Part shown: positions 7,283 to 24,652 of the stretch, in pieces | Layout: the number at the start of each line of letters is the position of its first letter | Numbering within the stretch: position 1 is the first letter of the stretch | Notes under the pieces: generated by a model | The model's database searches: none | What the model was told of the DNA's origin: nothing | The model's input: only the letters and a program-made list of their open reading frames with translations | DNA from: Gemmatimonadales bacterium | GTDB taxonomy: Bacteria; Gemmatimonadota; Gemmatimonadetes; Gemmatimonadales; GWC2-71-9 | NCBI GenBank assembly: GCA_035637355.1 | Contig: DASPXJ010000091.1 | Span: 161 to 64,160 of the forward strand | Reading direction: 5' to 3' | Length of the DNA stretch: 64,000 bases | Made by a program: the position numbers and the translations under genes

Positions 7283-8604
7283 GTTCTTCCTTTCCAGGAC
7301 CACATACCGAAGCACGCGACACCGAGCAGCAGCGCGCCGAGCCCGAAGGCGATGACGATGGGCGGCGTCGTAGCAAAGATGAAGATCCATCCGAGCAGCG
7401 CAACCAGGCTCGGCAGCGGATACAGCCACATCCGATAGGGCCGCGGCATGTCGGGCGCGCGCCGCCGCAGCAGGGTGACCGCGCCGATCTGGCCGATGAA
7501 CTGCACGAGAATGCGCGTGGTAATCAGCGCATCGATGACCGTGCCCAGCGATGCGAAGCCGGCCACGATCGACAGGGCGCCCAGCACGAGGAGCGAGACG
7601 TACGGAAACCCTTGAGTCGGGTGCAGCCGGGCGAACACCGTGAAGAAGTAGCCGTCCTTGGCGGCGGCGTACGGCACGCGCGAGTACCCGAGCAGCAGGG
7701 CGAACACCGAGCCGAACGCGGTCCACAGAATCATCGCCGTGAATACGGTGGCGATGCGCGGGCCGTAGATCCGTTCCATGAACATCGAGACGACGAAGTT
7801 CGACTGCGGGTGCGCCGCCGCCGGAACGAAATCCCGCCACGGCACGACGCCGATGATCGAGAAGTTGATCGCCACGTAGATCAACGCCACCGCCACGGTG
7901 CTCAACAGAATCGACCGCGGGATCACCCGGCCCGGATTCTCGACCTCGTCGCCGATGTAGCAGACGTCGTAGTAGCCGAGGTAGTCATAGACCCCGATCC
8001 GCGCGGCGGCGCCGAGGCCGATGAAAAAGCCGAGCGAGAAGTTGAACGCGCCCGGCGGAAAGGCGAAGGCGAGGCGCGAGTCGAAATGCCGCGCGCCCGT
8101 CAGGATCACGACAATGACGGTGAGAATTGTCCCGATCCAGAGGGTCAGCGTGATCGTCGCGATGGATTTGATGCGCCGGTAAAGCAGCGCCACGTTCACC
8201 AACCCGATGATCGTCACGACGAGCATCGTCTGGCGCGGCGTGATCCCTTTCCAGATGTAGCCGAGGTACTGCGAGAACCCGATGTATCCGGACGCGATCT
8301 CGAGCGGCCCGCTCAGGACGAATTGCCACACGAACAGAAAGCCCATCAGCCGCCCGACCGTGTCGGCGCCGTAGCCGTGGCGCAGATAGCCGAAGGAGCC
8401 GCCCGATCCCGGCAGCGCCGCGCCCAGCTCGCTCCACACCATGCCGTCGCACAGCACGATGATCAGCGCGACCAGCCAGCCGAGCATGGCCTGCGGGCCG
8501 CCGAGGGCGGACATCAGCAGCGGGATCGTGATGAACGGCCCGATGCCGATCATGTTCGTCATGTTGAGCGCCGTCGCGTGCACCAGGCCGAAGCGGCGGT
8601 CCAT
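7243..8604 (-). CDS. APC-family amino acid permease
   Basis: ORF 7243..8604, 453 aa, about 12 hydrophobic segments. The N-terminal MTNMIGIGPFITIPL and GSGGSFGYL motifs are typical of APC transporters. Confidence 0.85.
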   Translation of the reverse strand: MDRRFGLVHATALNMTNMIGIGPFITIPLLMSALGGPQAMLGWLVALIIVLCDGMVWSELGAALPGSGGSFGYLRHGYGADTVGRLMGFLFVWQFVLSGPLEIASGYIGFSQYLGYIWKGITPRQTMLVVTIIGLVNVALLYRRIKSIATITLTLWIGTILTVIVVILTGARHFDSRLAFAFPPGAFNFSLGFFIGLGAAARIGVYDYLGYYDVCYIGDEVENPGRVIPRSILLSTVAVALIYVAINFSIIGVVPWRDFVPAAAHPQSNFVVSMFMERIYGPRIATVFTAMILWTAFGSVFALLLGYSRVPYAAAKDGYFFTVFARLHPTQGFPYVSLLVLGALSIVAGFASLGTVIDALITTRILVQFIGQIGAVTLLRRRAPDMPRPYRMWLYPLPSLVALLGWIFIFATTPPIVIAFGLGALLLGVACFGMWSWKGRTWPFAIASQARWS

Positions 8605-8607
8605 CGG

Positions 8608-9066
8608 CTAGCGTCGGGACCAGAGCGTGAGGCTCACCTTGAGGACGAGTGCCCACTCGAAATCCTGAAACGGCTGGACGTCGGGGATCGCGACGAGCGC
8701 GGTGCGCGGAATCGGCAGTGGCACGACGATCGTGCTGATGATGGCGGGAAAGGGCCGGTAATCGTTGGCGTCGAACCACAACAGCCCCGCTCCCAGGTCG
8801 ACCGCGAGCGCCTTCGTGTCGATGAGCGAGCGTTCCGCCTCGGTGATGACGGTCGGCTTGGCGCTCCGGTCGCTCCACGCCAGCGTGAGCTCCGCGCGTG
8901 TCGCGTGCCATGGCGGGCCGTCGATATGGAGATCGAAATCGGGCTCCGATGAAAAATCGCCGAGCACGATGCCGGCGCCGAGGAAGGCGCGCTGCGCGGC
9001 GGCGGCGGCGGCGGCGGCGGGAAGTGCGGTGCCGATGAATACGAGCACGAGGGCGGTACGAAGCAC
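8608..9066 (-). CDS. Hypothetical secreted protein
   Basis: ORF 8608..9066 with signal peptide MLRTALVLVFIGTALPAAAAAAAAQ. No recognisable motif. Confidence 0.5.
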   Translation of the reverse strand: MLRTALVLVFIGTALPAAAAAAAAQRAFLGAGIVLGDFSSEPDFDLHIDGPPWHATRAELTLAWSDRSAKPTVITEAERSLIDTKALAVDLGAGLLWFDANDYRPFPAIISTIVVPLPIPRTALVAIPDVQPFQDFEWALVLKVSLTLWSRR

Positions 9067-9086
9067 GCCCTAATGTACGTCGTTCG

Positions 9087-9464
9087 CTACAACTGGTGAG
9101 CCACGGTCAGCGTGAACTTCCCCGCTCCCGTGCTGGTGCCGAAGCTGCTGTCGCTCGCCGTGCTGACGCCGGAAATGGTCCACGTCACCTTCAGGTTCGC
9201 CGCCTGTGCACTGCCGGTCGCGACCATCCACGCCGAGCCCGCCACGAAGGTGCCGGCGGGTGCGACATAGGCAACCGACCACGGCAGGGGGGGACTGGTG
9301 ACCTTGATGACGGTGCCTGCCGCGTCCTTGTACTTCACGGAATCACAGCTGATCTGCGGTGCTCCTGTCAGGTGGTAGGACACGACGTAATCGGGCGGCG
9401 TGGGCGGTGTGACCTTGCACGCGCTCGCGAGCAACACGGTGGCAAACGTCAGATGGCGAATCAT
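9087..9464 (-). CDS. Hypothetical lipoprotein
   Basis: Internal ATG 9464 of ORF 9087..9683 gives MIRHLTFATVLLASAC (lipobox LASAC). ATGA-type overlap with the upstream GNAT gene stop (9461). Confidence 0.55.
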   Translation of the reverse strand: MIRHLTFATVLLASACKVTPPTPPDYVVSYHLTGAPQISCDSVKYKDAAGTVIKVTSPPLPWSVAYVAPAGTFVAGSAWMVATGSAQAANLKVTWTISGVSTASDSSFGTSTGAGKFTLTVAHQL

Positions 9465-10066
9465 TGACCCTCTGATTGGTGCCGGTGCAGCCGCAGCTCG
9501 AGATAGCGTTTCACATCCGGCCATTCCGTCGCCAGAATGCTGTACATCACGACGTCGCGCACGCTGCCGTCGCGCCTGGTGCCGAAGTGGCGAATCACGC
9601 CGTCCTTCTTGGCGCCCAGCGCTTCGATCGCCCGCTGCGACCGAAAGTTGAAGTTGTCCGTCCTGAGCCCCACGACCTTGCATCCGAGTTTCTCAAACGC
9701 GTGAGTCAAGAGCAGCAGCTTGCATGTCGTGTTGACGTGAGTGCGCTGGCGGCTTTGCCCGTACCACGTATGCCCGATTTCGACGCGCTCGATCGCCGGC
9801 TCGATATCGTGGTAGCGCGTCGATCCCATGATCGCACCGCTCGCCACGTCGCGCACGACCCAGGGAAGCATGTGGCCGTCGCGCTGGCCTGTCAGCGCGA
9901 CGGCGACGTACGTCCGCATGCCGTCGGGCGGCGGCACCGCGACGAACCACAGCTCCCACAGCCGGCCGTCGCCCGCCGCCGCCGCGAGCGCGTCGCTGTG
10001 CTCCTCGGCCAGTGGCTCGAGTCGAATGCCGTGTCCCTCGAGGACCACGGGGCGCGGTGCGATCAT
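9461..10066 (-). CDS. GNAT-family N-acetyltransferase (RimJ/RimL-like)
   Basis: ORF 9461..10066. IRLEPLAEEHSDAL... and the acetyl-CoA-binding-type segment NFRSQRAIEALGAKKDGVIR. Confidence 0.85.
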   Translation of the reverse strand: MIAPRPVVLEGHGIRLEPLAEEHSDALAAAAGDGRLWELWFVAVPPPDGMRTYVAVALTGQRDGHMLPWVVRDVASGAIMGSTRYHDIEPAIERVEIGHTWYGQSRQRTHVNTTCKLLLLTHAFEKLGCKVVGLRTDNFNFRSQRAIEALGAKKDGVIRHFGTRRDGSVRDVVMYSILATEWPDVKRYLELRLHRHQSEGQ

Positions 10067-10079
10067 GCGGGAAGACCTC

Positions 10080-10499
10080 CTAATCGCCTAGTACCTTAAT
10101 GATCACGCGCTTCTTGCGCTGCCCGTCCCACTCGCCATAAAACACGCGCTGCCACGGCCCGAAATCCAGCTTGCCGGCAGTAATCGGCACGATGACCTCA
10201 TGGCCGATCGTGAGGCTGCGCAGGTGCGCCGCCGCATTGTCCTCGCCCGTCTCGTTGTGCCGATACCGCTGGGGATCCCATGGCGCGATCGTCCCTTCCA
10301 GCCACTTCAGAATGTCCTCCCACAGTCCCGACTCGTGGTCGTTCACGAACACGGATGCGGAGATGTGCATGGCGCTAACCAGGACCAGGCCTTCCCGCAC
10401 CTCGCTCACCTGCACCTCCTTCACCACTTCCTCCGTAATGTCGATGATCTCCTGACGCCGCTTCGTGTTGAACCAGAGATAGTGGGTGTGCGCCTTCAT
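10080..10499 (-). CDS. YjbQ/UPF0047-family protein (secondary thiamine-phosphate synthase type)
   Basis: ORF 10080..10523, using ATG 10499 ([10 protein letters not shown]). Contains ITEEV...[23 protein letters not shown]...NAAAHLRSL...[13 protein letters not shown]. Confidence 0.85.
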
Positions 10500-10555
10500 G
10501 AACCCCCCGTGTCGAATTGTCACACGCCCGCCGAATCCCTAAATTGGCCGCAAAT

Positions 10556-11782
10556 ATGGCGCTTCCCTTCCGGCGGCGAATCTTCGTCATCCTCGTCGTC
10601 ATGACCGCGGTCCCGACGGTGCTCGCCGTCGCCGGTTGGGTCCTGTCGGTACGCCGCCTGCTGCCCGCCGCCGGGGCCCGCGCCGCGACGGAGCGCGTCG
10701 CCATCACCGCCCGCACCCTGCTCGAGGGCGTGGACACGCTGCACCTCACCGTTCGCGAGCGCGCGTTGCTGCGCCACCACCTCGACGAAGTCTCGGCATC
10801 CGTCAGCTTCGCGCGCCGGGCCGAAACGTTCCTGCGCTACTACACGGCCGGCTTCGCGCTGGTCATCGTGCTGCTCGGCGCCGCCGTCCTCTACGCGGCG
10901 GTGAATCTCGCCGGCCACTTGTCGCGGCAGCTTTCGCGTCCGATCGACGAGCTGGTCGGGTGGACGCAGCTGATCCGGCGCCACGAGCCGCTCCCTCCCC
11001 TGGGGGGGCCGACGAGCCGCGGTGCCCCCGAATTCGAGGCGCTGCGCCAGGCATTGCGCGAGCTGGCCGCGGCGCTCGCCGCCGCGCGCGAGCGCGAGCT
11101 GGAAGCCGAGCGGCTGCGCGCGTTCCGCGAGGTCGCCCGACGCGTGGCGCACGAAATCAAGAATCCATTGACATCGATGCGGATCGCGGTTGACCAACTG
11201 CGACGGAACGATGGAATGACGGAAGGACGGAAGGACATTGCGCTTCAAGTGATGGCGGCGGAAACCGACCGCCTGGAGCGCCTCGCCAAGGAATTCTCGG
11301 AGTTTGGTCGCTTGCCCGAGGGGCCGCAGAGTGAGGTCGATCTCGTCGAGCTGCTCGCCGAGTTGGGACGCACCGGAGTCCCGGAGGGCGTGCGGGTCAA
11401 CGTCGATGCGAACGGCGGACCGCAGGGGCTCCTTGGCCACTACGAGCCGCTGCGCCGCGCGTTCGCGAATCTCTATCGCAACGCCGCCGAGGCGATGAAC
11501 GGCCGCGGCGCGATCGACGTGACGGTCACCGGCGACGGCGCCGGGCTGGCGGTGACGATCGCCGACCACGGCCCCGGCATCCCCGCCGATCTGCGCCAGC
11601 GCATCTTCGAGCCGTACTTCACGACGAAGGACGACGGCACCGGCCTCGGCCTCGCGCTGGTGCGCGTCACGCTCGAAGCCCATCGGGGCACCATATCCGT
11701 GAGCGAGACGCCCGGTGGCGGAGCGACGTTTGCGATCGTCTTCCCCCCTTCCCCCGTCCCCCTTCCCCCGTCCCCCCAATGA
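10556..11782 (+). CDS. Sensor histidine kinase (NtrB/NtrY-like partner of a sigma54 activator)
   Basis: ORF 10517..11782 (TTG); ATG 10556 preferred. Two TM segments and a HAMP-like linker, H-box HEIKNPLTSM, N-box NLYRNAAEAM and G-boxes DHGPGIP / GTGLGLA. Confidence 0.85.
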   Translation: MALPFRRRIFVILVVMTAVPTVLAVAGWVLSVRRLLPAAGARAATERVAITARTLLEGVDTLHLTVRERALLRHHLDEVSASVSFARRAETFLRYYTAGFALVIVLLGAAVLYAAVNLAGHLSRQLSRPIDELVGWTQLIRRHEPLPPLGGPTSRGAPEFEALRQALRELAAALAAARERELEAERLRAFREVARRVAHEIKNPLTSMRIAVDQLRRNDGMTEGRKDIALQVMAAETDRLERLAKEFSEFGRLPEGPQSEVDLVELLAELGRTGVPEGVRVNVDANGGPQGLLGHYEPLRRAFANLYRNAAEAMNGRGAIDVTVTGDGAGLAVTIADHGPGIPADLRQRIFEPYFTTKDDGTGLGLALVRVTLEAHRGTISVSETPGGGATFAIVFPPSPVPLPPSPQ

Positions 11783-13173
11783 GCCCTCGCGTCCTCCTCG
11801 TCGACGACGAGTCGAACATCCGCCGCATGGTCGGGGCGCTGCTGCAATCGGATGGCTTCGAAACCGTCGAGGCGCCTGACGGCAACGCGGCGCTGGTGCG
11901 GCTCGTCGATGACGCGCCCGACGTCGTGCTGCTCGATCTGATGATGCCACCCGGACCCGACGGCCTCGCGACGCTGGAGCAGATCCGCAAACGAGCGCCG
12001 CACATCCCCGTCGTGATGATGAGCGGCAAGGCCACCCTCGCCGATGCCGTGCGCGCGACGAAGCTCGGCGCCTTCCAGTTCCTCGAGAAGCCGCTCACCC
12101 CCGAAGGGGTGCTGGTGGCGCTGCGCAGCGCGCTGGAATTGGGACGCACCCTCGCCGAGAACAAGCGGCTGCACGAGCAGCTGGGACACGCCGATCCGCT
12201 GGTCGGATCGAGCACCGCGATGGAAGCGCTGCGCGCGCTGATCGCGCGGGTCGCACCCACGGAGTCGCGCGTGTTGATCACGGGCGAATCGGGCACGGGC
12301 AAAGAGCTCGTCGCCTCGGCGATCCACCGGCTCAGCGCGCGCGGCAACAAGCCGTTCGTCACCGTGAACAGCGCCGCACTGCCGCGCGATCTCGTGGAGT
12401 CGGAAATGTTCGGGCACGAGCGCGGCGCCTTCACCGGCGCGACGGAGCGGCGCCAGGGCCGCTTCGAGCTGGCGGACGGCGGCACCCTGTTTCTCGACGA
12501 AGTCGGGGACCTGGGCGCGGAGGCGCAGGCGAAGCTGCTGCGCGTGCTGGAGAGCGGCGTGGTCGAGCGCGTCGGTGGCGAGCGTCCGTTCGACGTCAAC
12601 GTGCGCGTCATCGCCGCGACGAACAAGGACCTGCAACAGGCGGTGCGGCAGGGGCAGTTTCGCGAAGACCTGTGGTTTCGGCTGAACGTGCTGCCGATCC
12701 ACATTGCGCCGCTGCGCGAGCGGCCGGAAGACGTGGCGCCGCTGGTTCGCCATTTCGCCGAGCGCTCCGCGGCGCGGCTCGGCCGGCCGGTGAAGTTCGA
12801 CGCCGGCGCGGTGCCGCTGCTCGCCGCCTACACCTGGCCCGGCAACGTGCGCGAGCTCGCCAACATCATTGAACGGATGGCGATCCTGGCGACGTCGGAA
12901 CTCTTGACTGCGGCAGATGTCGCCCGCGTGCTGCCACAGGATGGCCTGCGGCCCCCCCCGGCTGCCGTCACCGCCGCCGACGGCGAGCCGTGGCGCGACA
13001 TCGCGCTCAGCGAGACGCTCGACCAGTATGAGCGCGAGCTGATCGCCAAAGCGCTGTCCGCATCGCGCGGCAACGTCGCCGAAGCCGCGCGCCGGCTGCA
13101 GACCGACCGGGCCAATTTGTACCGCCGCATGCGCCGTCTCGGTATCGAGCCTCCACTGAAAGCCGACCTATGA
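11779..13173 (+). CDS. Sigma54-dependent Fis-family response regulator (NtrC-like)
   Basis: ORF 11779..13173. REC domain (VLLVDDE...DLMMP), AAA+ Walker A GESGTGKE, sigma54-contact GAFTGA, C-terminal Fis-type HTH (RGNVAEAARRLQTDRANLYRRM). ATGA overlap with the kinase gene. Confidence 0.9.
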   Translation: MSPRVLLVDDESNIRRMVGALLQSDGFETVEAPDGNAALVRLVDDAPDVVLLDLMMPPGPDGLATLEQIRKRAPHIPVVMMSGKATLADAVRATKLGAFQFLEKPLTPEGVLVALRSALELGRTLAENKRLHEQLGHADPLVGSSTAMEALRALIARVAPTESRVLITGESGTGKELVASAIHRLSARGNKPFVTVNSAALPRDLVESEMFGHERGAFTGATERRQGRFELADGGTLFLDEVGDLGAEAQAKLLRVLESGVVERVGGERPFDVNVRVIAATNKDLQQAVRQGQFREDLWFRLNVLPIHIAPLRERPEDVAPLVRHFAERSAARLGRPVKFDAGAVPLLAAYTWPGNVRELANIIERMAILATSELLTAADVARVLPQDGLRPPPAAVTAADGEPWRDIALSETLDQYERELIAKALSASRGNVAEAARRLQTDRANLYRRMRRLGIEPPLKADL

Positions 13174-14912
13174 TCACACTACTGTTAGCGCTGGCCACTC
13201 TGCAGGACACCACGATCGTCATCCATCCCGACAGCTCGAGCGCCACGCTCGAGGCGCGGGCGCTGCCGCGCGTCGTGTCCGAAGAAGTCATCCGGTTCTA
13301 CAACGCCGCCGGGACGACCCGCCTGGTCGGCCGGACCCGGCTGCCGCGCGGCAACGAGTGGCGCGGCAACGTGGCGGTCCGCAACGGGCCGGTGCTCGTC
13401 GCGGGCCGGGTCCAGGGCACGCTCGTCGTGATCAACGGCGATCTGCTGTTCGATCAGGGGGGTGGGGCCGAAGTGACCGGCGACGTCATCGTCGTCGGCG
13501 GCACGGTCAATGACACGGCCAAGGCGCGGATCGGCGGGGAGGTGCGGCAGTACCGCGAGCCGCTGCTCTACCGCCTTCATAAGGAAGGGGACGAGATCGT
13601 CTACGCCCCCAACCTCCGGCGCCGGCTATGGAATCCGGGCGCGCACGTCTCCTGGGGTACGGCCGACTCGCGCTCGTCCCTCACGATCGCGACGGGCGGA
13701 ACATTCAATCGTGTCGAAGGGCTGCCGGTCGTCTTCGGACCGCTGGTCGACTGGAAGCTCGAGCAGAACTTCCGGCTGCGCGTCGATGCGCTCGGCGTAT
13801 TCCGGTCGGCCGGCGATCTCTCCGACAAGCGCAGCGACCTCGGCTACATGTTCCGCAGCGAGCTGCGCGCCGGCGACGTGCGCCCGGTGGGGCTCGGCCT
13901 GCGCGCGTTCGACGTCGTCTCGCCCGTCGAAGACTTGGGACTCCATAATGCGGAGATCGGGTGGAGCGCGTTTGTCTTCGGCCGCGATTACCGCGACTAC
14001 TACCTGAACAAGGGATGGGCGGCCCGCGTGTTCGCGCAACCGGAACGCCAAGTGTCGCTGTCGCTCGAGCTGCGGCGCGAGTGGCAGACGGGCGTCGGCA
14101 CGCAGGATCCCTGGACGGTGTTTCGCAATTCCGAGCCGTGGCGCCCCAACCCGCCGATCGACGAAGGGCACTTCACGACGCTCGCGCTGGGTGCCGCGCT
14201 CGACACGCGCAACGATCCCGACGAGCCCTCCTCCGGGTGGCTGGTGCGCACGACGCTCGAGCATTCGGGGAGCAAAGACGTCGTCCCCCACACCGGCGTG
14301 CCGGCGAGCGTCCGCGATTCGATTCCGACCGATGGGTCGTACGGCTTCGGCCGGATGTTCTTCGACCTCCGGCACTACGCCCGCATCAGCCCGTCGGGAC
14401 GCGTGAACGTGCGGTTGATCGCCGGCGGCTGGGCCGGCGGCGATCCGCTGCCGCTGCAGCGACGCCTGTCGCTCGGCGGTCCCGATCCGATGCCCGGCCA
14501 TCCGTTCCGCGCCAGCTCGTGCAACACCGCCTTCACCGACCCCGCGTTCGCCGGCACACTGGTCGCGGCGTGCGACCGCGTCATCGCGTTCCAGACGGAG
14601 TATCGCGGCCACGTGAAGCTCAACTGGAGCTACAACCCGTGGAAGGACGACAAACCGGAGCGCGACGAGGGCCGCGGATCGTTCTTCTGGCTGGAAGGGC
14701 TCGACGTCGTGGTATTCGCGGACGCGGGCCAGGGCTGGCTCGTGGGCAATGCGCCGGGCCACGTACCGTCCGGCAGAATTCCCGGCTTCTCGAGCTGGCT
14801 CGTGGATGCGGGACTGGGCGTCGATTGGGGAGGATTCGGAGTCTACATCGCCAAGGCGGTCACAACCGGCGAACGGCTGCGCTTCACGGTCCGGCTCGAT
14901 CACCGGTTCTAG
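13170..14912 (+). CDS. Outer-membrane Omp85/surface-antigen(D15)-like beta-barrel with an N-terminal bactofilin-like beta-helix segment; no recognisable POTRA
   Basis: ORF 13170..14912 with signal MITLLLALATLQ. Residues 70-130, GNVAVRNGPVLVAGRVQGTLVVINGDLLFDQGGGAEVTGDVIVVGGTVND, form a G/V-periodic beta-helix pattern. The C-terminus LSLGGPDPMPGHPF...VVFADAGQGW...DAGLGVDWGGFGVYIAKAV...FTVRLDHRF ends in an aromatic residue like Omp85 barrels. ATGA overlap with the regulator gene. Confidence 0.55.
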   Translation: MITLLLALATLQDTTIVIHPDSSSATLEARALPRVVSEEVIRFYNAAGTTRLVGRTRLPRGNEWRGNVAVRNGPVLVAGRVQGTLVVINGDLLFDQGGGAEVTGDVIVVGGTVNDTAKARIGGEVRQYREPLLYRLHKEGDEIVYAPNLRRRLWNPGAHVSWGTADSRSSLTIATGGTFNRVEGLPVVFGPLVDWKLEQNFRLRVDALGVFRSAGDLSDKRSDLGYMFRSELRAGDVRPVGLGLRAFDVVSPVEDLGLHNAEIGWSAFVFGRDYRDYYLNKGWAARVFAQPERQVSLSLELRREWQTGVGTQDPWTVFRNSEPWRPNPPIDEGHFTTLALGAALDTRNDPDEPSSGWLVRTTLEHSGSKDVVPHTGVPASVRDSIPTDGSYGFGRMFFDLRHYARISPSGRVNVRLIAGGWAGGDPLPLQRRLSLGGPDPMPGHPFRASSCNTAFTDPAFAGTLVAACDRVIAFQTEYRGHVKLNWSYNPWKDDKPERDEGRGSFFWLEGLDVVVFADAGQGWLVGNAPGHVPSGRIPGFSSWLVDAGLGVDWGGFGVYIAKAVTTGERLRFTVRLDHRF

Positions 14913-14913
14913 A

Positions 14914-15531
14914 GTGCGCCTTCGTTGGTGGGTGGGGGGGGCCATCGCTCTGGCCCTCACGCCACAGGTGGGCGTCGCGCAGTCTCCTACGCTGACGGTC
15001 ACGCTGCAAAACGACGTCCCGCGCGTGCGCAGCACGGGGCTCCTGGCCGACGGCAAATTCGTGGGACTGATGCGCTCGGGCTTTCCGCTGCGGCTGCACT
15101 ACCGGCTCGAGCTGTGGAAGGTGCGCACCTCCTGGTTCGATCAGTTCATCCGCGAGGTCTCGTGGGACGGCGTCGCGCGCAACGATCCGCTGGCCGACGA
15201 CTTCGTGCTGATCCGGCAGGGAGGGAACGTGAGCCGCTATGCGACGCCCGATGACCTGGCGGCGGCGTTGGACATTCCCTACACCGTCACGTTGGGGCCG
15301 AGCGGCGGGTCGGGACGCTATTACTTCGTCGCGCGGCTCGAGGTCACGACGCTCAACGACACGGATCTACAAGAATTGTCCCGGTGGCTCTCGGGACAAG
15401 TGGGACCCGCCGTGTCAGGTGAGGGAAATTTCGGCGAAGCGTTGGCGCGGGGAGCGCAGCGGGTGCTGGTCCGGCTCGCGGGGCTGCCGCGTCAGCGGCT
15501 CGAGGCGCGGAGTCCTACGTTCCGGCCGTAG
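14914..15531 (+). CDS. DUF4390-like periplasmic protein
   Basis: GTG 14914, 2 nt after the upstream stop, within ORF 14749..15531. Signal VRLRWWVGGAIALALTPQVGVAQ; body LRLHYRLELWKVRTSWFDQFIREVSW...YYFVARLEVTTLN. The family is recalled (from memory) to sit next to sigma54 two-component pairs. Confidence 0.5.
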   Translation: MRLRWWVGGAIALALTPQVGVAQSPTLTVTLQNDVPRVRSTGLLADGKFVGLMRSGFPLRLHYRLELWKVRTSWFDQFIREVSWDGVARNDPLADDFVLIRQGGNVSRYATPDDLAAALDIPYTVTLGPSGGSGRYYFVARLEVTTLNDTDLQELSRWLSGQVGPAVSGEGNFGEALARGAQRVLVRLAGLPRQRLEARSPTFRP

Positions 15532-15631
15532 GACGACGTCGAACGACGACGTCAAACAACGGCGTCAAACAGAGACGTCGAAGAACGGCGTCGGCGGAAA
15601 GACGATCACGGACCGCGTAGGAATGATGACG
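15526..15631 (+). repeat. Array of ~8 degenerate 13-bp tandem units (left end of islet)
   Basis: ccgtaggacgacg / tcgaacgacgacg / tcaaacaacggcg / tcaaacagagacg / tcgaagaacggcg / tcggcggaaagacg / atcacggaccgcg / taggaatgatgacg. It starts on the DUF4390 stop codon. Confidence 0.75.
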
Positions 15632-15663
15632 CCCCGCCGCACTTCGAACGCTATCGTGGGCGC

Positions 15664-16032
15664 ATGGTTCTCCGCGCCGATCCCAGCCGACTGCTCGTCT
15701 CCCATGTTGCTGCAGCTGTGGCCAAGGAGTGCGCCGAGCTGGCCAAGACGTTCCGCGGCCCTGGCGCATTCGCCAGAGCCGATCAGTTGGTTCGAGCGTC
15801 CGTGTCTGTGGTCTCGAATATCGCCGAGGGCTGTGGGCGCGGCACCGTCCCGGACTTCCGGCGCTTCTTGCTGCATGCGCGTGGGTCAGCGCAGGAGACC
15901 CTCACCCAGCTCCGCCTCATCAACCCAACAAGCCCGGCCCAGAGCAGCCAACTACGCTCCCTTCAGAGCCGGACGGTGTTGGTCTTGAAGCTGATCAATC
16001 GTTTGTATTCGCACCCCCCGCCAGACAAATAG
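15664..16032 (+). CDS. Four-helix-bundle protein (23S rRNA intervening-sequence protein / Avd-like family)
   Basis: ORF 15664..16032. The motif ADQLVRASVSVVSNIAEGCGRGTVPDFRRFLLHARGSAQETLTQL matches the family core xQLxRAxxSIxxNIAEGxGRxxxxEFxxFLxxAxGSxxE. A stem-loop caaccgc-N7-gcggttg at 16037-16057 follows the stop. Confidence 0.75.
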   Translation: MVLRADPSRLLVSHVAAAVAKECAELAKTFRGPGAFARADQLVRASVSVVSNIAEGCGRGTVPDFRRFLLHARGSAQETLTQLRLINPTSPAQSSQLRSLQSRTVLVLKLINRLYSHPPPDK

Positions 16033-16143
16033 GTATCAACCGCCGCGAGTGCGGTTGCCAGACAGGAGTTGTTCCGGCAGCGGTTGGAAACGGCCCGCGC
16101 CGATGTATCTTTCGCGCAGTGCAGAGAGAGGGAGCAAGGAACC

Positions 16144-16443
16144 ATGCCCGCCGTCGATCTGGATCTCGCGAACTTCGCGTCGGAGTGGCACGCTCAGACA
16201 CTAAAAGGCCACCTGCAGGCCTACGTTAGGCGAGAGGGGTCGGACGGGTCCCTTGCTCGAGTCGTGAAGACCACAGCGACCTACCTACGGAAGGGCCTTG
16301 TCTCTCACGGCACGCTCCGCTGTCTTGTTGCCGAAGTCGAGACAGAGAGTGTGGACGATTTCCGAAGCTGGCGAGATTACCAGCAACGGAGGGATCGGTT
16401 TTGCAGCATGATGACAGGCCTGTCTGATCTCCTCAAGCAGTAA
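16144..16443 (+). CDS. Hypothetical protein (99 aa), orphan
   Basis: Internal ATG 16144 of ORF 16069..16443, preceded by gagggagcaaggaacc (SD-like). Lower GC than the flanks. No motif recognised. Confidence 0.4.
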   Translation: MPAVDLDLANFASEWHAQTLKGHLQAYVRREGSDGSLARVVKTTATYLRKGLVSHGTLRCLVAEVETESVDDFRSWRDYQQRRDRFCSMMTGLSDLLKQ

Positions 16444-16465
16444 CGTAGTCCGCTTCAAGCGCTTC

Positions 16466-16945
16466 TTACGGCGAGCGCCCACCGCGTGGCCAGACGCACC
16501 GGCCTATGGCCTTGAACTTCGCGATTGGAAGCTGATGCCGCTGGTTTCGCGACTTGGAGCCCGGCGCCAGCAGCGCGGCGCGGACCGCGGCCCGCTCGGC
16601 GCGGTAGATGGCAGTAGCGTTGAACTCTGAGTCCAGGAGGACAAGAAGAACCGCGTCCCATGGCTTGGACAAATCGATGGCTCCCATTCGGGCGCCTGGG
16701 TTAACTTTGCCCGGGAAGCATCTGCCCTTGATCTGAAGCTGTTCTCTCCGACCGTTGCGTACTTTCCCTTCCGCATCGTATCCAGGCTGGCGCACGGCGA
16801 CCGGCCGCAGGCGCAGGAGCCTGATAGCCTCATATTCGGCCACCTCACCCGTAACGCCGAGCGGTCGCCCAGTGAGATGGTAGTATTGCTTCGCCAAGCG
16901 CTTGGCGTTGGCGAGCAGCCGGATCAGGCTCTTCGAGTTCGGCAT
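16466..16945 (-). CDS. Small PD-(D/E)xK-like (restriction-endonuclease-fold) protein, hypothetical
   Basis: ORF 16466..16945. GVTGEVAEYEAIRLL...GYDAEG...EQLQIKGR gives an E...D...(E/Q)xK spacing typical of the fold. Convergent with ORF 16144-16443. Confidence 0.45.
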   Translation of the reverse strand: MPNSKSLIRLLANAKRLAKQYYHLTGRPLGVTGEVAEYEAIRLLRLRPVAVRQPGYDAEGKVRNGRREQLQIKGRCFPGKVNPGARMGAIDLSKPWDAVLLVLLDSEFNATAIYRAERAAVRAALLAPGSKSRNQRHQLPIAKFKAIGRCVWPRGGRSP

Positions 16946-16947
16946 GG

Positions 16948-17069
16948 TCTTCGTTGTGGAAGGAGCGGTCGAAGAAGGGCGTAAGGAGGGGCGTTCGTCG
17001 GAGCGTAGTCGTTCGACGTCTTTGTTTTACGGCTTTGTTCTACGGTTTTTGTTCGACGACTTTCTTCTA
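16948..17069 (-). repeat. Array of degenerate 13-bp tandem units (right end of islet), same family as 15526-15631, inverted
   Basis: Minus strand from 17069: tagaagaaagtcg / tcgaacaaaaaccg / tagaacaaagccg / taaaacaaagacg / tcgaacgactacg, then decaying CG-phased units down to the ATG at 16945. Plus-oriented units at 16962-17010 make the region an imperfect palindrome. Confidence 0.7.
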
Positions 17070-17075
17070 CGGTGT

Positions 17076-17477
17076 TCAACTCCCAAATTGACGGTCGATA
17101 GCGGCACGGATTTCCGTCAGCGATTTCCCCTGCCCCGCCATACTGCTCGCCAGCATGGCCTCACCCATGCAGATGTCGCAATAGGCCGCGTGCGTTGACT
17201 CGTAGCAGGTGAGCAGCGAGCGGTGGCTGGAGTGCTTCGAGCAATCGCAATGGCAGTAGACCCCATCGAGCGTGGCAGCGATGGTGCGCGCGGCCGCGTA
17301 CGCCTCGAGCGCACCGGGGTTGCGTGGGATTGCGGGATCGGCGAGGACCTTCGCGGCCGTGATGCCGGGCCGCGGCGTGGGATGCTGGGTCGAGCCGCCG
17401 GCCGGCCGCGTGAGAAAAACGACCCCCACCAACGCGGCTGCGCCGGCGCCCGCCAGCACCCAGGGCACCTTGGCCAT
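17076..17477 (-). CDS. PCYCGC-motif membrane-anchored protein
   Basis: ATG 17477 within ORF 17076..17738. TM anchor MAKVPWVLAGAGAAALVGVVFL. Cys/His cluster VYCHCDCSKHSSHRSLLTCYESTHAAYCDICMGEA. Confidence 0.7.
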   Translation of the reverse strand: MAKVPWVLAGAGAAALVGVVFLTRPAGGSTQHPTPRPGITAAKVLADPAIPRNPGALEAYAAARTIAATLDGVYCHCDCSKHSSHRSLLTCYESTHAAYCDICMGEAMLASSMAGQGKSLTEIRAAIDRQFGS

Positions 17478-18025
17478 TACAACGCCTCGAGCGTCGCCAG
17501 TACATCCGCTCCGTAGAAGAGCCGGATGTACTTCGCCTGCGTCCGCGTGAGGCGGCGCACCGCCCAGGAGAGATGCACGAAGTGCGGCTCGTGCGGCGAG
17601 CGCAGCGGGTGCATGCCCACTTCCTCGGGCAGCAGGTTGCCCTTGCGGGTGTTGCAGCTCGAGCACGCCGTCAGGACGTTGGTCCACGCGTTCGTGCCGC
17701 CGCGGGACAGCGGGACGAGGTGGTCGCGCGTCAGGCACTCGCGCTGCCGCAGCTCCTGCTGCGAGCGGCCGCAGAACTGGCAGCGGTAGTTGTCGCGGGC
17801 AAACAGGAACGTGTTGGTGACTTGGCGGCGGAAGCGGCGGGGGACGTGGACGAAGCGGACGAGTCGGATGACAGCGGGGCGTGGCACCGCCATTCGCTCG
17901 GAATGGACCGGCGTGCCTTCCGCCTCGACGACCTCGGCCTTCCCATCAATGACCAGCCGCAGCGCCCGGCGCACCGGCACCATGGTCAGCGGCTCGAACG
18001 AGGCATTGAGGGCTAGGCAACGCAT
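17477..18025 (-). CDS. HNH endonuclease-family protein
   Basis: ORF 17477..18025. CQFCGR...LTRDHLVPLSRGGTNAWTNVLTACSSCNTRKG (HNH with two CxxC pairs). N-terminal LALNASFEPLTMVPVRRALRLVIDGKAEVVE. TAATG overlap with the PCYCGC gene. Confidence 0.85.
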   Translation of the reverse strand: MRCLALNASFEPLTMVPVRRALRLVIDGKAEVVEAEGTPVHSERMAVPRPAVIRLVRFVHVPRRFRRQVTNTFLFARDNYRCQFCGRSQQELRQRECLTRDHLVPLSRGGTNAWTNVLTACSSCNTRKGNLLPEEVGMHPLRSPHEPHFVHLSWAVRRLTRTQAKYIRLFYGADVLATLEAL

Positions 18026-23405: not shown

Positions 23406-24652
23406 GGGGCGGAAATCTGATGCACGATGCGGCCGCTGACTACTGTTAACTGGGCGGCGAGGGGCGGCGAGGGACGGCGAGGGGCGGCGAGCGGGAAAAC
23501 CGCCAAGTCGGCCGCCTTTCCGACTTCCAGCGAACCGATCTCACGCTCCCAGCCCAGCGCGCGCGCCCCTTCTATTGTAAGCATGCGCAGCGCTGCATCC
23601 CCCCCCCCGGTGAGCCCGGCCGCCTCTGCCTCCGCCCATAGGTCCAGCTCGCCGACGCTCACGACAGAGTCGGTGCCCAGGCCCACCGGCACGCCGGCCT
23701 CGCGAACCCATCGGAGCGGCAGGCGGCCATGGCGATGCGCCGCGTTGGAGCGGGGACAATGCGCCACCGCCGCCCGCGTCACGCGCAACAGCTCGATGTC
23801 GGCCTGATCGACCTGCACGCAATGAATGCACAGCGTGCCAGGGCGCAGGATGCCCCGTTGCAGGAGATACGCGACCGGCGAGCAATTCCGTGCCTCAATG
23901 GCGATTCCGCGCGCACGCAATGCAGCGGCGAACGGTCCGGCACCATCGCGGACCAATAGCGTCTCCTCTTGTGATTCGGCGGCATGCACAGCGATCGGCA
24001 ACCCTTCGTTGCGGGCGAACGCGGCCACGGCATCGTAGAGTGACGCGCTCACGGTGTACGGTGCATGAGGTGAAACCCCAACTGACAGTTGCGCAGTTGC
24101 AAGACGGCGCAGTTGCGAGATCGCTTTCTCCAGCTCCTCCATGCTCGCGGAGCACTGCGCGGGGTCCGGACCAAACACTTCCTGGTACACGATCCCTCGG
24201 CCGCCGAGGTCGTGGAGCGCGCGCATCACCGCACCGGTGCTGCCGGTTTCCGCGACGCAGGTGACGCCGCGCGTCCAGCAATCGCGCACGCCCGCCACCG
24301 CCGCCTCGTAAAACGCCTCGGCGCTGGTCGCCTCCTTCAGCTCGCGGATCCGCCTGATCCAGGTGAGGAATTCGGACTCGTCGTGCCGCCCGCCGCCGCC
24401 GCCGCCGCCGCCCAGATGCGTGAGCTCGAGATGCGTATGGCAGTTGACGAGGCCGGGCATCAGCTCCGCGTCGGGGAAATGCAGTGGCTGCGCAGCGGCA
24501 GGCTGCGGCACGCTCGCGTGCGGCCCGACCGCAGCGATCCGTCCCGCGCCGTCAACAAGAACGGCGCCGTCCTCGAAGGACGGCGCCGTTACTGGATGGA
24601 TGCGAGCGGCACGAATCCTCAGTCCAGTCATCAGCTCCAAGCTAGACGACAC
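23402..24652 (-). CDS. Metal-dependent amidohydrolase (chlorohydrolase/deaminase-like)
   Basis: ORF 23402..24652 (GTG); an alternative ATG lies at 24631. HxH motif LVNCHTHLELTH followed by a Gly8 insert, then ...HAAES...CIHCV...GTDS. Confidence 0.8.
   Translation of the reverse strand: MSSSLELMTGLRIRAARIHPVTAPSFEDGAVLVDGAGRIAAVGPHASVPQPAAAQPLHFPDAELMPGLVNCHTHLELTHLGGGGGGGGRHDESEFLTWIRRIRELKEATSAEAFYEAAVAGVRDCWTRGVTCVAETGSTGAVMRALHDLGGRGIVYQEVFGPDPAQCSASMEELEKAISQLRRLATAQLSVGVSPHAPYTVSASLYDAVAAFARNEGLPIAVHAAESQEETLLVRDGAGPFAAALRARGIAIEARNCSPVAYLLQRGILRPGTLCIHCVQVDQADIELLRVTRAAVAHCPRSNAAHRHGRLPLRWVREAGVPVGLGTDSVVSVGELDLWAEAEAAGLTGGGDAALRMLTIEGARALGWEREIGSLEVGKAADLAVFPLAAPRRPSPPLAAQLTVVSGRIVHQISAP

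Follow-up and report, generated by a model that had tools for sequence, protein, structure and literature searches.

What kind of element is bounded on both sides by arrays of one short tandem repeat, sits between two protein-coding genes and carries no recombinase? The question is raised by a small islet in a 64,000-nt stretch of a soil Gemmatimonadales genome (GenBank assembly GCA_035637355.1, contig DASPXJ010000091.1), the whole of which we call the window. An earlier, sequence-only reading had described the islet as lower in GC content than its flanks, bounded by inward-pointing arrays of a 13-bp unit, and occupied by a four-helix-bundle (4HB) gene and a nuclease-like gene. It concluded that the arrangement could not be placed in any described class of element, and it mentioned a likeness to the inverted stems around the 4HB genes in intervening sequences (IVSs) of 23S rRNA. 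That conclusion was too strong, and the likeness provides the best placement, as judged from the flanks of 4HB genes in other phyla, an IVS of Azospirillum and the pairing of the arms. We consider it probable (roughly 0.6) that the islet is an IVS-type 4HB cassette at a non-rRNA site, with the same design as those 23S rRNA IVSs that contain an open reading frame (ORF).

The segment at about 15525-17085, about 1561 bp long, is a horizontally acquired insertion. We scanned GTDB genomes with the 580-aa Omp85-like neighbour and obtained 18 Gemmatimonadales loci, 16 of which reach the site. All 16 lack both the arrays and the islet genes, and their neighbouring genes are 75-97% identical; the check for empty sites that the sequence-only reading had proposed was therefore positive and marks the segment as foreign DNA. 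At the empty sites, the DUF4390-like gene and the CYCXC/PCYCGC gene are convergent and overlap tail to tail by 26 nt (CTACGATCCGAATTGACGGTCGATAG). The empty-site sequence is GAGTCCTACGATCCGAATTGACGG. In the empty locus closest to the window (L014; 97.6% nucleotide identity), homology with the window stops at ...CCTACG(T)TCCG (15524) and restarts at AATTGACGG (17086). No divergent recombination tract was found beside the islet in the flanks of the window and L014.

The insertion has altered the ends of both host genes, whose ORFs now terminate inside it. On the left, the DUF4390-like gene (14932-15531, + strand), which runs 26 nt into the opposite gene at the empty sites, has gained a new stop codon at 15529-15531. 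The earlier label DUF4390 holds for this gene only as a sub-threshold Pfam match (20.6 versus 27 bits). On the right, the CYCXC/PCYCGC-family gene (17076-17477, - strand; PF13798, 8.4e-7; NF041379, 3.2e-26) has new last three codons and a new stop codon (17076-17087, - strand), TTT GGG AGT TGA in place of the TTC GGA TCG TAG of the empty sites. This gene end sits in inserted or duplicated DNA, and the C-terminal F-G-S of the protein is kept despite the insertion by means of other codons. The composition of the segment is distinct, as had been claimed: its GC content is 0.54-0.65, versus 0.66-0.74 in the flanks, and GC content at third codon positions is 0.68-0.75 in the three internal ORFs, versus 0.81-0.90 in neighbouring genes. 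Identical copies of the filled locus are present in several soil metagenomes; JGI 3300012350 and 3300012353 are examples of those with the filled allele.

Occupancy of the site is sporadic, as is that of rRNA IVSs, with 16 empty loci against three filled lineages. In neighbour-joining trees of the flanking genes, the filled loci L079 and L121/L084 are outgroups, and the window is nested among the 16 empty loci, beside L014. This topology implies either at least one independent insertion at exactly the same position or a very old polymorphism that has been maintained. The insertion appears to be site-specific, adjoining a host TCCTACG that resembles one inverted unit.

We delimited the arrays by combining TRF, position-weight-matrix and pattern matches with a lag-13 test. 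The left (forward) array occupies 15527-15600 on the + strand, with units starting at 15527, 15537, 15550, 15563 and 15576 and a decayed unit at 15589. The right (inverted) array, of 13- or 14-bp units, occupies 17004-17076 on the - strand, with cores at 17062-17071, 17049-17058, 17035-17044, 17022-17031 and 17009-17018. The unit is CGT-M-R-A-A-S-R-A-NNN (that is, CGT-C/A-G/A-AA-C/G-A/G-A-NNN), which is shifted by 2 nt from the unit first described. TRF reports the left array at 15532-15593 (period 13, 4.8 copies, score 59; period 26, score 76) and the right array at 17011-17072 (period 13, 4.7 copies, score 66; period 27, score 78), and both rank among the top-scoring tandem arrays of the window. 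The core CGTMRAASRA occurs nine times in the window against 1.66 expected, a count reached in none of 100 shuffles, and eight of the nine matches fall in the two arrays. Self-similarity at lag 13 is 0.70 on the left and 0.63 on the right, with a null maximum of about 0.4 (0 of 2000 shuffles), and the 12 highest-ranking sliding windows of the whole 64 kb all fall at the two arrays. The shuffle test that might have undone the claim of a 13-bp periodicity thus places it well above chance, and both arrays belong to one unit family.

The arrays are also mutually inverted, as had been proposed: the 33-nt arms at 15550-15582 and 17012-17044 are 82% complementary. Folding the two arms together, a check suggested by the sequence-only reading, gives a predicted RNA duplex of -74.1 kcal/mol (z -6.2). 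At the left junction, the hairpin tcctacg-N7-cgtagga (15513-15533, + strand) folds as described; its TCCTACG half is unit-like, derives from the host and is present at the empty sites, and it pairs with CGTAGGA of the first insert unit. At the right end, decayed forward units (16962-17010, + strand) make up the inner half of a palindrome; they are homologous to GTGGAAGGAGGAGCGTTGGTCGGAGCG in L079, and positions 16963-16982 are 85% identical to a pair of left-array units. A further unit-like conserved box, CGCGTAGGAATGATGA (15614-15629, + strand), lies 35 nt upstream of the 4HB start codon and has counterparts in L079 (GCGTAGGAATGATTA), L116 (GCATAGGAATGGTGC) and L127 (GGCATCAGAATGATGA), with a remnant, GCGTAAGAATGATGA, in the gene-less L121. 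This box may carry a promoter or an element of the 5' untranslated region. Scans of the segment for sigma-70 consensus promoters and for terminators gave nothing above shuffles, and a search of Rfam at E<=1 over 15300-17300 gave a chance match to a small RNA and no rRNA match.

The constant partner of the arrays is the 4HB gene (15664-16032, + strand), which encodes a protein of 122 aa with a pI of 11.1. The protein matches PF05635 (5.5e-22, 78.4 bits against a cut-off of 33.8) and TIGR02436 (1.6e-22), placing it in the 23S_rRNA_IVP/TIGR02436 family, as well as the PDB entry 2GSC (8.5e-10). Among the Gemmatimonadales copies dN/dS is 0.06-0.2, indicating strong purifying selection. We found that a distant relative (L079) has an insertion at the same site with the same junctions, laid out as forward array, box, 4HB gene (85% amino acid identity) and inverted array, and lacking the two other genes of the islet, orf99 and the nuclease-like DUF6998 gene. 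At other genomic sites, L116/L107 and L118/L096 carry the succession forward array, 4HB gene, inverted array, and L127 and L128 have the same layout with decayed units. Inverted arrays of the unit family therefore stand on both sides of a 4HB gene at four independent Gemmatimonadales sites: window/L079, L116/L107, L118/L096 and L127. The core of the cassette is thus a forward array, a PF05635 4HB gene and an inverted array. Because L079 lacks orf99 and DUF6998, and because DUF6998 genes in other contexts lack arrays, the arrays go with the 4HB gene rather than with the nuclease-like gene. As the sequence-only reading had stated, no recombinase domain was found in the segment.

The arrays also occur without the gene. 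Three loci (L121, L084 and L061) carry arrays at the same site as the window and no gene, and they retain the box that elsewhere precedes the 4HB gene. When metagenomes were scanned for three units in a row, 76 loci came up; many were other 13-bp repeats in low-GC contigs, such as CGTAAAACAATTG, and were set aside, and a coherent set of GC-rich soil contigs with the same 13-mer remained. Among these, nine distinct gene-less contigs have three or four forward units followed directly by three or four inverted units. The resulting palindromes lie in the nuoA/nuoB gap, in the fusA/tuf gap, behind tRNA genes and at gene ends. The gene-less arrays fold at -37 to -110 kcal/mol, and the four that were scored against shuffles (L052, L055, L059 and L073) have z values of -3.6 to -7.5. 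In about 650 kb of GC-rich loci, no transposase or recombinase adjoins any array. Some arrays (L072, L124) are runs of identical units.

Three of the gene-less palindromes lie directly beside tRNA genes (L059:1340-1560, L073:4010-4230 and L095:130-330), and the inverted unit includes GTTCGA, the T-loop consensus. A T-run follows two of these three palindromes, so some copies may serve as terminators. The scans also brought up repeats of other kinds. In freshwater contigs (L056, L058, L064, L067, L069, L075, L082 and others), long arrays of CGTAAAACAATTG are followed by GCGTAATG-type repeats, an arrangement that recurs in many contigs of about 48% GC. A pattern scan of viral contigs yielded AT-rich repeats of giant viruses and CRESS-like iterons, ACGTCGAAAGAAC, both of which we judged to be unrelated and forced by the pattern. 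The iterons come from L047 (1480-1570) and L048 (IMG/VR, 2.9 kb), CRESS-like circular contigs encoding Rep and a capsid, in which four 13-bp copies of ACGTCGAAAGAAC lie between divergent genes; their likeness to the 13-mer unit is probably due to chance.

The same design is found in other phyla. A tblastn search of plasmids with the 4HB protein of the window gave five weak matches, and the set used here was obtained with a cyanobacterial 4HB query: 11 plasmid loci from Cyanobacteriota, Gemmatirosa (Gemmatimonadota), Azospirillum (Pseudomonadota) and Riemerella (Bacteroidota). At nine of the 11 loci, the 4HB ORF is preceded by short tandem repeats and followed by their complement (E 5e-4 to 3e-11). 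The unit, of 7-8 bp, differs from locus to locus, and at most of the nine the repeats on the upstream side are rich in purines. Gemmatirosa kalamazoonensis KBS708 has its 8-mer arms on plasmid 1. The same flank test was positive at only 5 of 697 control pseudo-gene positions (about 0.7%), and among the 37 annotated coding sequences of one plasmid its single match was the 4HB gene itself. When five further Gemmatimonadales loci are added to the plasmid loci, complementary flanks are present in 12 of 16 4HB loci, versus about 0.7% of controls.

One of these plasmid loci links the design directly to rRNA. The locus on Azospirillum lipoferum plasmid AZO_p2 (L133) lies inside 23S rRNA and is thus a genuine IVS; it has 7/14-mer repeats upstream of its ORF. 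In the IVS of Coxiella, tandem GACAGAT heptamers are likewise reported to precede the ORF, the first of them being the site of RNase III cleavage (PMC4990558). The arms of the Azospirillum rRNA IVS form a predicted duplex of -72.9 kcal/mol (z -8.5), and those of L116 and L118 form duplexes of -93.0 (z -10.6) and -67.1 kcal/mol (z -5.7), respectively. Elsewhere in the plasmid set, repeat-armed 4HB genes of Pseudanabaena, Picosynechococcus and Anabaena plasmids (L130, L137 and L139) lie within CRISPR-cas operons, in the cas6/cas4 gap in two genera and in the cas10/cmr3 gap in a third.

The two remaining genes of the islet are situated in the stretch from the 4HB stop codon to the distal arm, and the occurrence of the module without them indicates that they are later passengers. 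One of them, orf99 (16144-16443, + strand), was missed in the sequence-only reading, whose account of two genes was therefore incomplete. It has no family assignment, only two non-identical homologues in the protein collection (both 99 aa) and a weak match to Csx19 (3.9e-4). Its own conserved upstream stretch, CGATGTATCTTTCGC, lies at 16104-16118. L142 and L143 contain an identical orf99 module, including CGATGTATCTTTCGC, in different flanks, which gives orf99 the look of a very small mobile module in its own right. In L140, an orf99 homologue adjoins a SMODS nucleotidyltransferase gene.

The other passenger is the DUF6998 gene (16466-16945, - strand), whose product of 159 aa (pI 11.1) is PD-(D/E)xK-like. 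It matches the PADLOC family mREase_II at 4e-48 over residues 6-153 of 159, in agreement with the earlier call of a nuclease-like gene, and 20 homologues share the invariant residues E34, E37, E39, D57 and Q71-x-K73. A PDB sequence search with this protein gave no match. Its homologues carry PF22522 and occur in mobile or defence contexts without arrays: the six contexts that we inspected (66-91% identical) include a relaxase, UvrD with Ea47, AbiEii/restriction endonuclease islands and a solitary insertion, and none of the six has 13-mer arrays. From the family match, we predict that the DUF6998 protein is a methyl-directed restriction endonuclease. The islet thus gives the strain a candidate enzyme of this type that its 97.6%-identical relative L014 does not have.

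How might such a cassette work? We infer that the two arms would pair and that adjacent forward and inverted arrays would fold locally into long hairpins. A transcript crossing the cassette would then carry a long double-stranded stem, by analogy the kind of RNase III substrate found in rRNA IVSs, and such a stem would set the cassette apart from host transcripts or bring about their termination or stabilisation. Since tandem-repeat arms can pair in any unit-multiple register, pairing should survive the gain or loss of copies. The arms, or their hairpins, probably also act in cis as ends for insertion. The enzyme that moves the cassette would be encoded elsewhere, and the basic, strongly conserved 4HB protein would be the sole element-encoded candidate for a cofactor.

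Several observations weigh against placing the islet among IVS-type cassettes. The arms of the window are 1.4 kb apart with a convergent gene between them. The long imperfect palindrome that the sequence-only reading saw at the right end is present as sequence but not as a fold, since it folds no better than shuffles (z -1.2). Many hairpins have unpaired spacers of 3-4 nt, and the core is better kept than the pairing, a pattern that also fits a protein-binding motif. Two of the five further Gemmatimonadales 4HB loci (L079 and L128) fail the strict 200-nt flank test, and neither the rest of the window nor about 290 kb of loci from relatives contains a further array or 4HB copy. No target-site duplication can be defined securely. 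L121 comes closest, with an imperfect duplication of 11 nt, CTACGTTCCGA and CTATGACCCAA against CTACGATCCGA at the empty site; in both the window and L079, the shared sequence amounts to GTTC or TCC(G/C), and there is no clear duplication. Each end of these last two loci has CCGTAG(G/A)A as its outermost unit, and as these two loci have junction sequences in common, the ends of the element there are inseparable from the flanks. An old presence/absence polymorphism kept by recombination is an alternative to site-specific insertion.

Could the islet instead be a non-autonomous DNA transposon, either a mini-transposon or an element like the miniature inverted-repeat transposable elements (MITEs)? 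The arrays would then be multi-site terminal inverted repeats (TIRs) for a transposase encoded elsewhere, as at the ends of Tn7, Mu and IS21, the 4HB gene and its companions would ride as cargo, and internal deletion would have produced the gene-less palindromes. Inverted arrays at both ends with no recombinase between them, clean empty sites, gene-less end-to-end forms scattered over unrelated intergenic positions and the possible target duplication of L121 are all what such an element should leave. A transposase or recombinase gene, on the other hand, stands beside none of the arrays in those 650 kb, the copy number of the units varies, the termini are not sharp, and the window and L079 show no clear duplication. 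In addition, the unit changes in sequence and in length (13, 8 or 7 bp) from lineage to lineage while the 4HB gene stays, which is hard to square with a 4HB gene that is mere cargo. The earlier suggestion of a non-autonomous mobile element is therefore borne out in that the segment was inserted, and not in the sense of a classical transposon with a clear duplication, sharp termini and a cognate transposase, and we regard a transposon of this kind as unlikely. Homing by the DUF6998 nuclease, which would cut the empty site and have the islet copied in by repair, with the arrays incidental, draws on the PD-(D/E)xK-like signature and on DUF6998 genes that form solitary insertions between housekeeping genes, as in L011. 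It is largely refuted by L079, where the same site holds the arrays and the 4HB gene without DUF6998; close homologues (66-91% identical) reside elsewhere without arrays, and the best family match is to a methyl-directed restriction enzyme. We therefore give homing very little credence.

A different reading makes the arrays operators or iteron-like sites, bound by a regulator that is perhaps the basic 4HB protein itself and that controls the two inward-facing genes; the inverted layout would then merely reflect two divergently placed promoter regions. About 60 nt do separate the end of each array from an inward-facing start codon downstream of it (15664, + strand; 16945, - strand), the core of the unit is more conserved than the spacers, the 4HB protein has a pI of 11.1, a unit-like box is conserved just upstream of its gene, and natural iterons with a 13-bp unit in tandem are known, as in the CRESS-like contigs L047 and L048. 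The positions thus agree with the earlier idea that each array serves the gene it faces; such a role would be secondary, as L079 ties the arrays to the 4HB gene. There, the right array lies past the 3' end of the 4HB gene, and no inward-facing gene reads from it. Gene-less palindromes within housekeeping operons, a cross-phylum rule that consists in complementarity of the two sides rather than in a common motif, the lack of a sigma-70-like promoter in the consensus scan and the lack of a replication gene all count against operators or iterons as the primary explanation; the sequence-only reading had offered this possibility as an alternative, and we find it quite improbable. Finally, the arrays could be functionless slippage products in AT-richer foreign DNA that are inverted by coincidence. 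Variable copy number and unit sequence would be expected on this account, as would the runs of identical units in L072 and L124. The same unit family is inverted on both sides of the gene at four independent Gemmatimonadales sites, and the excess of complementary flanks at 4HB loci (12 of 16, versus about 0.7% of controls) contradicts it; this explanation is hardly credible.

We therefore favour an IVS-type 4HB cassette at this locus, and we put forward tentatively a broader possibility, that 4HB "IVS proteins", together with the tandem-repeat arms around their genes, make up a single class of mobile cassettes that is widespread. Such a class would insert both in rRNA helices and between or inside operons, in at least four phyla, and a repeat unit of 7, 8 or 13 bp would be particular to each lineage. 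As the factor supplied by the element itself, the conserved basic 4HB protein would act on the repeats, and the gene-less palindromic arrays would descend from the element as non-autonomous forms, comparable to REPINs. The cassettes could also be landing pads for defence or toxin genes, such as the restriction-like gene here, the orphan modules of an Rhs locus in L125 and the cas operons of cyanobacteria. The L125 locus (7500-16000; JGI Ga0679452_0000204) consists of an Rhs-repeat locus and, behind it, four modules in tandem, each about 2.2-2.35 kb long; a 4HB gene heads every module, forward 13-mer units lie upstream of it in two, and different orphan toxin/immunity-like ORFs follow each 4HB gene. 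Judging from this arrangement, the boundaries between modules of polymorphic-toxin loci may be formed by 4HB cassettes.

Parts of this picture were known already, namely IVSs with 4HB ORFs and inverted ends, and the heptamer repeats of Coxiella. The origin and mobility of rRNA IVSs and the function of their 4HB ORF have been open questions for more than 25 years (PMC4990558). A literature search, limited and thus no proof of novelty, gave no account of repeat-armed 4HB cassettes outside rRNA and nothing on 13-bp arms, clean filled and empty sites, passenger defence genes or dispersed gene-less arrays. The locus provides a filled site with precise limits and, for comparison, 16 empty ones, all in protein-coding DNA. 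A distant relative has the same junction, the arms exist both with and without an ORF between them, and the protein gene is intact and under purifying selection. With these materials, insertion specificity, RNase III processing and binding of the 4HB protein to the repeats become testable. If the rule is general, complementary flanks of short tandem repeats would be a simple annotation signature for 4HB cassettes, and would explain 4HB genes inside cas, par and restriction-modification operons.

Two other features of the window may be recorded. Its remaining tandem repeats, CCCCCTTCCCCCGT (2.4 copies, 11744-11776), GGGCGGCGAG (four copies, 23452-23491) and an 18/19-mer (2.4 copies, 24546-24589), are unrelated to the 13-mer family. 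An HNH_5 endonuclease-like gene (17477-18025, - strand) is 98-100% identical at the protein level across relatives whose neighbouring genes are only 65-90% identical, an unusually strong conservation for such a gene.

How does the cassette compare with known systems? Replicon iterons are tandem direct repeats beside an origin or the gene for a replication initiator; here there is no rep gene, and the present arrays are inverted on both sides of a gene and also occur as palindromes. Integron attC sites and CALIN clusters resemble the cassette in that an imperfect palindrome follows a small ORF on its 3' side; the GTTRRRY core is matched by some inverted units (GTTAGAC), and L125 has modules in tandem. 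We dropped this assignment, as the core is not matched by most units (GTTCGAC, GTTCTAC), no integrase was found, and the arms have up to eight units instead of an R''-L''/L'-R' pair; the insertion between convergent genes is a further difference. The Avd accessory proteins of diversity-generating retroelements have a homologous basic 4HB fold (PF05635/cd16375; PMC10053308). Unlike those systems, the cassette consists of arrays and a single ORF, and within 10 kb on either side there is neither a reverse transcriptase (RVT domain) among the called genes nor a template/variable repeat pair.

Among mobile elements, Tn7, Mu, IS21 and Tn402/Tn5053 likewise have several copies of a short motif at each end, with the ends mutually inverted. 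Their sites are about 19-22 bp long and irregularly spaced, with transposase genes alongside, whereas the 13-bp units stand in tight tandem, with no transposase in the element or near the arrays examined. MITEs such as the Correia elements of Neisseria are small, intergenic and free of transposase, have inverted ends and form hairpins in transcripts; RNase III cuts Correia elements. Correia-type elements differ in their defined TIRs and TA target duplication; the cassette has periodic end arrays of variable copy number, no clear duplication and a conserved protein gene as the usual content. Repetitive extragenic palindromic (REP) and REPIN sequences with their REP-associated tyrosine transposases (RAYTs) share with it the dispersal of palindromes between genes and inside operons, and the inverted flanking of a single small gene with no obvious host function. 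The gene flanked here encodes a PF05635 4HB protein and not an HUH/Y1 transposase (no Y1_Tnp domain was found in the segment), and the repeats are tandem 13-mer arrays rather than one hairpin of 20-35 nt. As for dispersal, nine gene-less palindromes were found in GC-rich soil contigs and none further in about 350 kb of sequence from the window and its relatives.

The closest comparison remains that with the ORF-containing 23S rRNA IVSs of Leptospira, Coxiella burnetii (S23p) and Azospirillum (L133). The cassette differs from these in lying between a DUF4390-like and a CYCXC/PCYCGC gene rather than in helix 9, 25 or 45 of 23S rRNA, in its 13-bp unit, its array arms of 60-75 bp and its two extra genes, and in the strong purifying selection on its 4HB gene, whereas Coxiella S23p appears to be decaying. 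Salmonella and Campylobacter have short IVSs without an ORF, with which the gene-less forms may be compared. What the cassette shares with the ORF-containing IVSs is a PF05635 4HB protein encoded between complementary ends that can pair into a long stem, an ORF preceded by short tandem repeats (GACAGAT in Coxiella, PMC4990558; 7/14-mers in L133), a sporadic distribution among relatives and a lower-GC composition.

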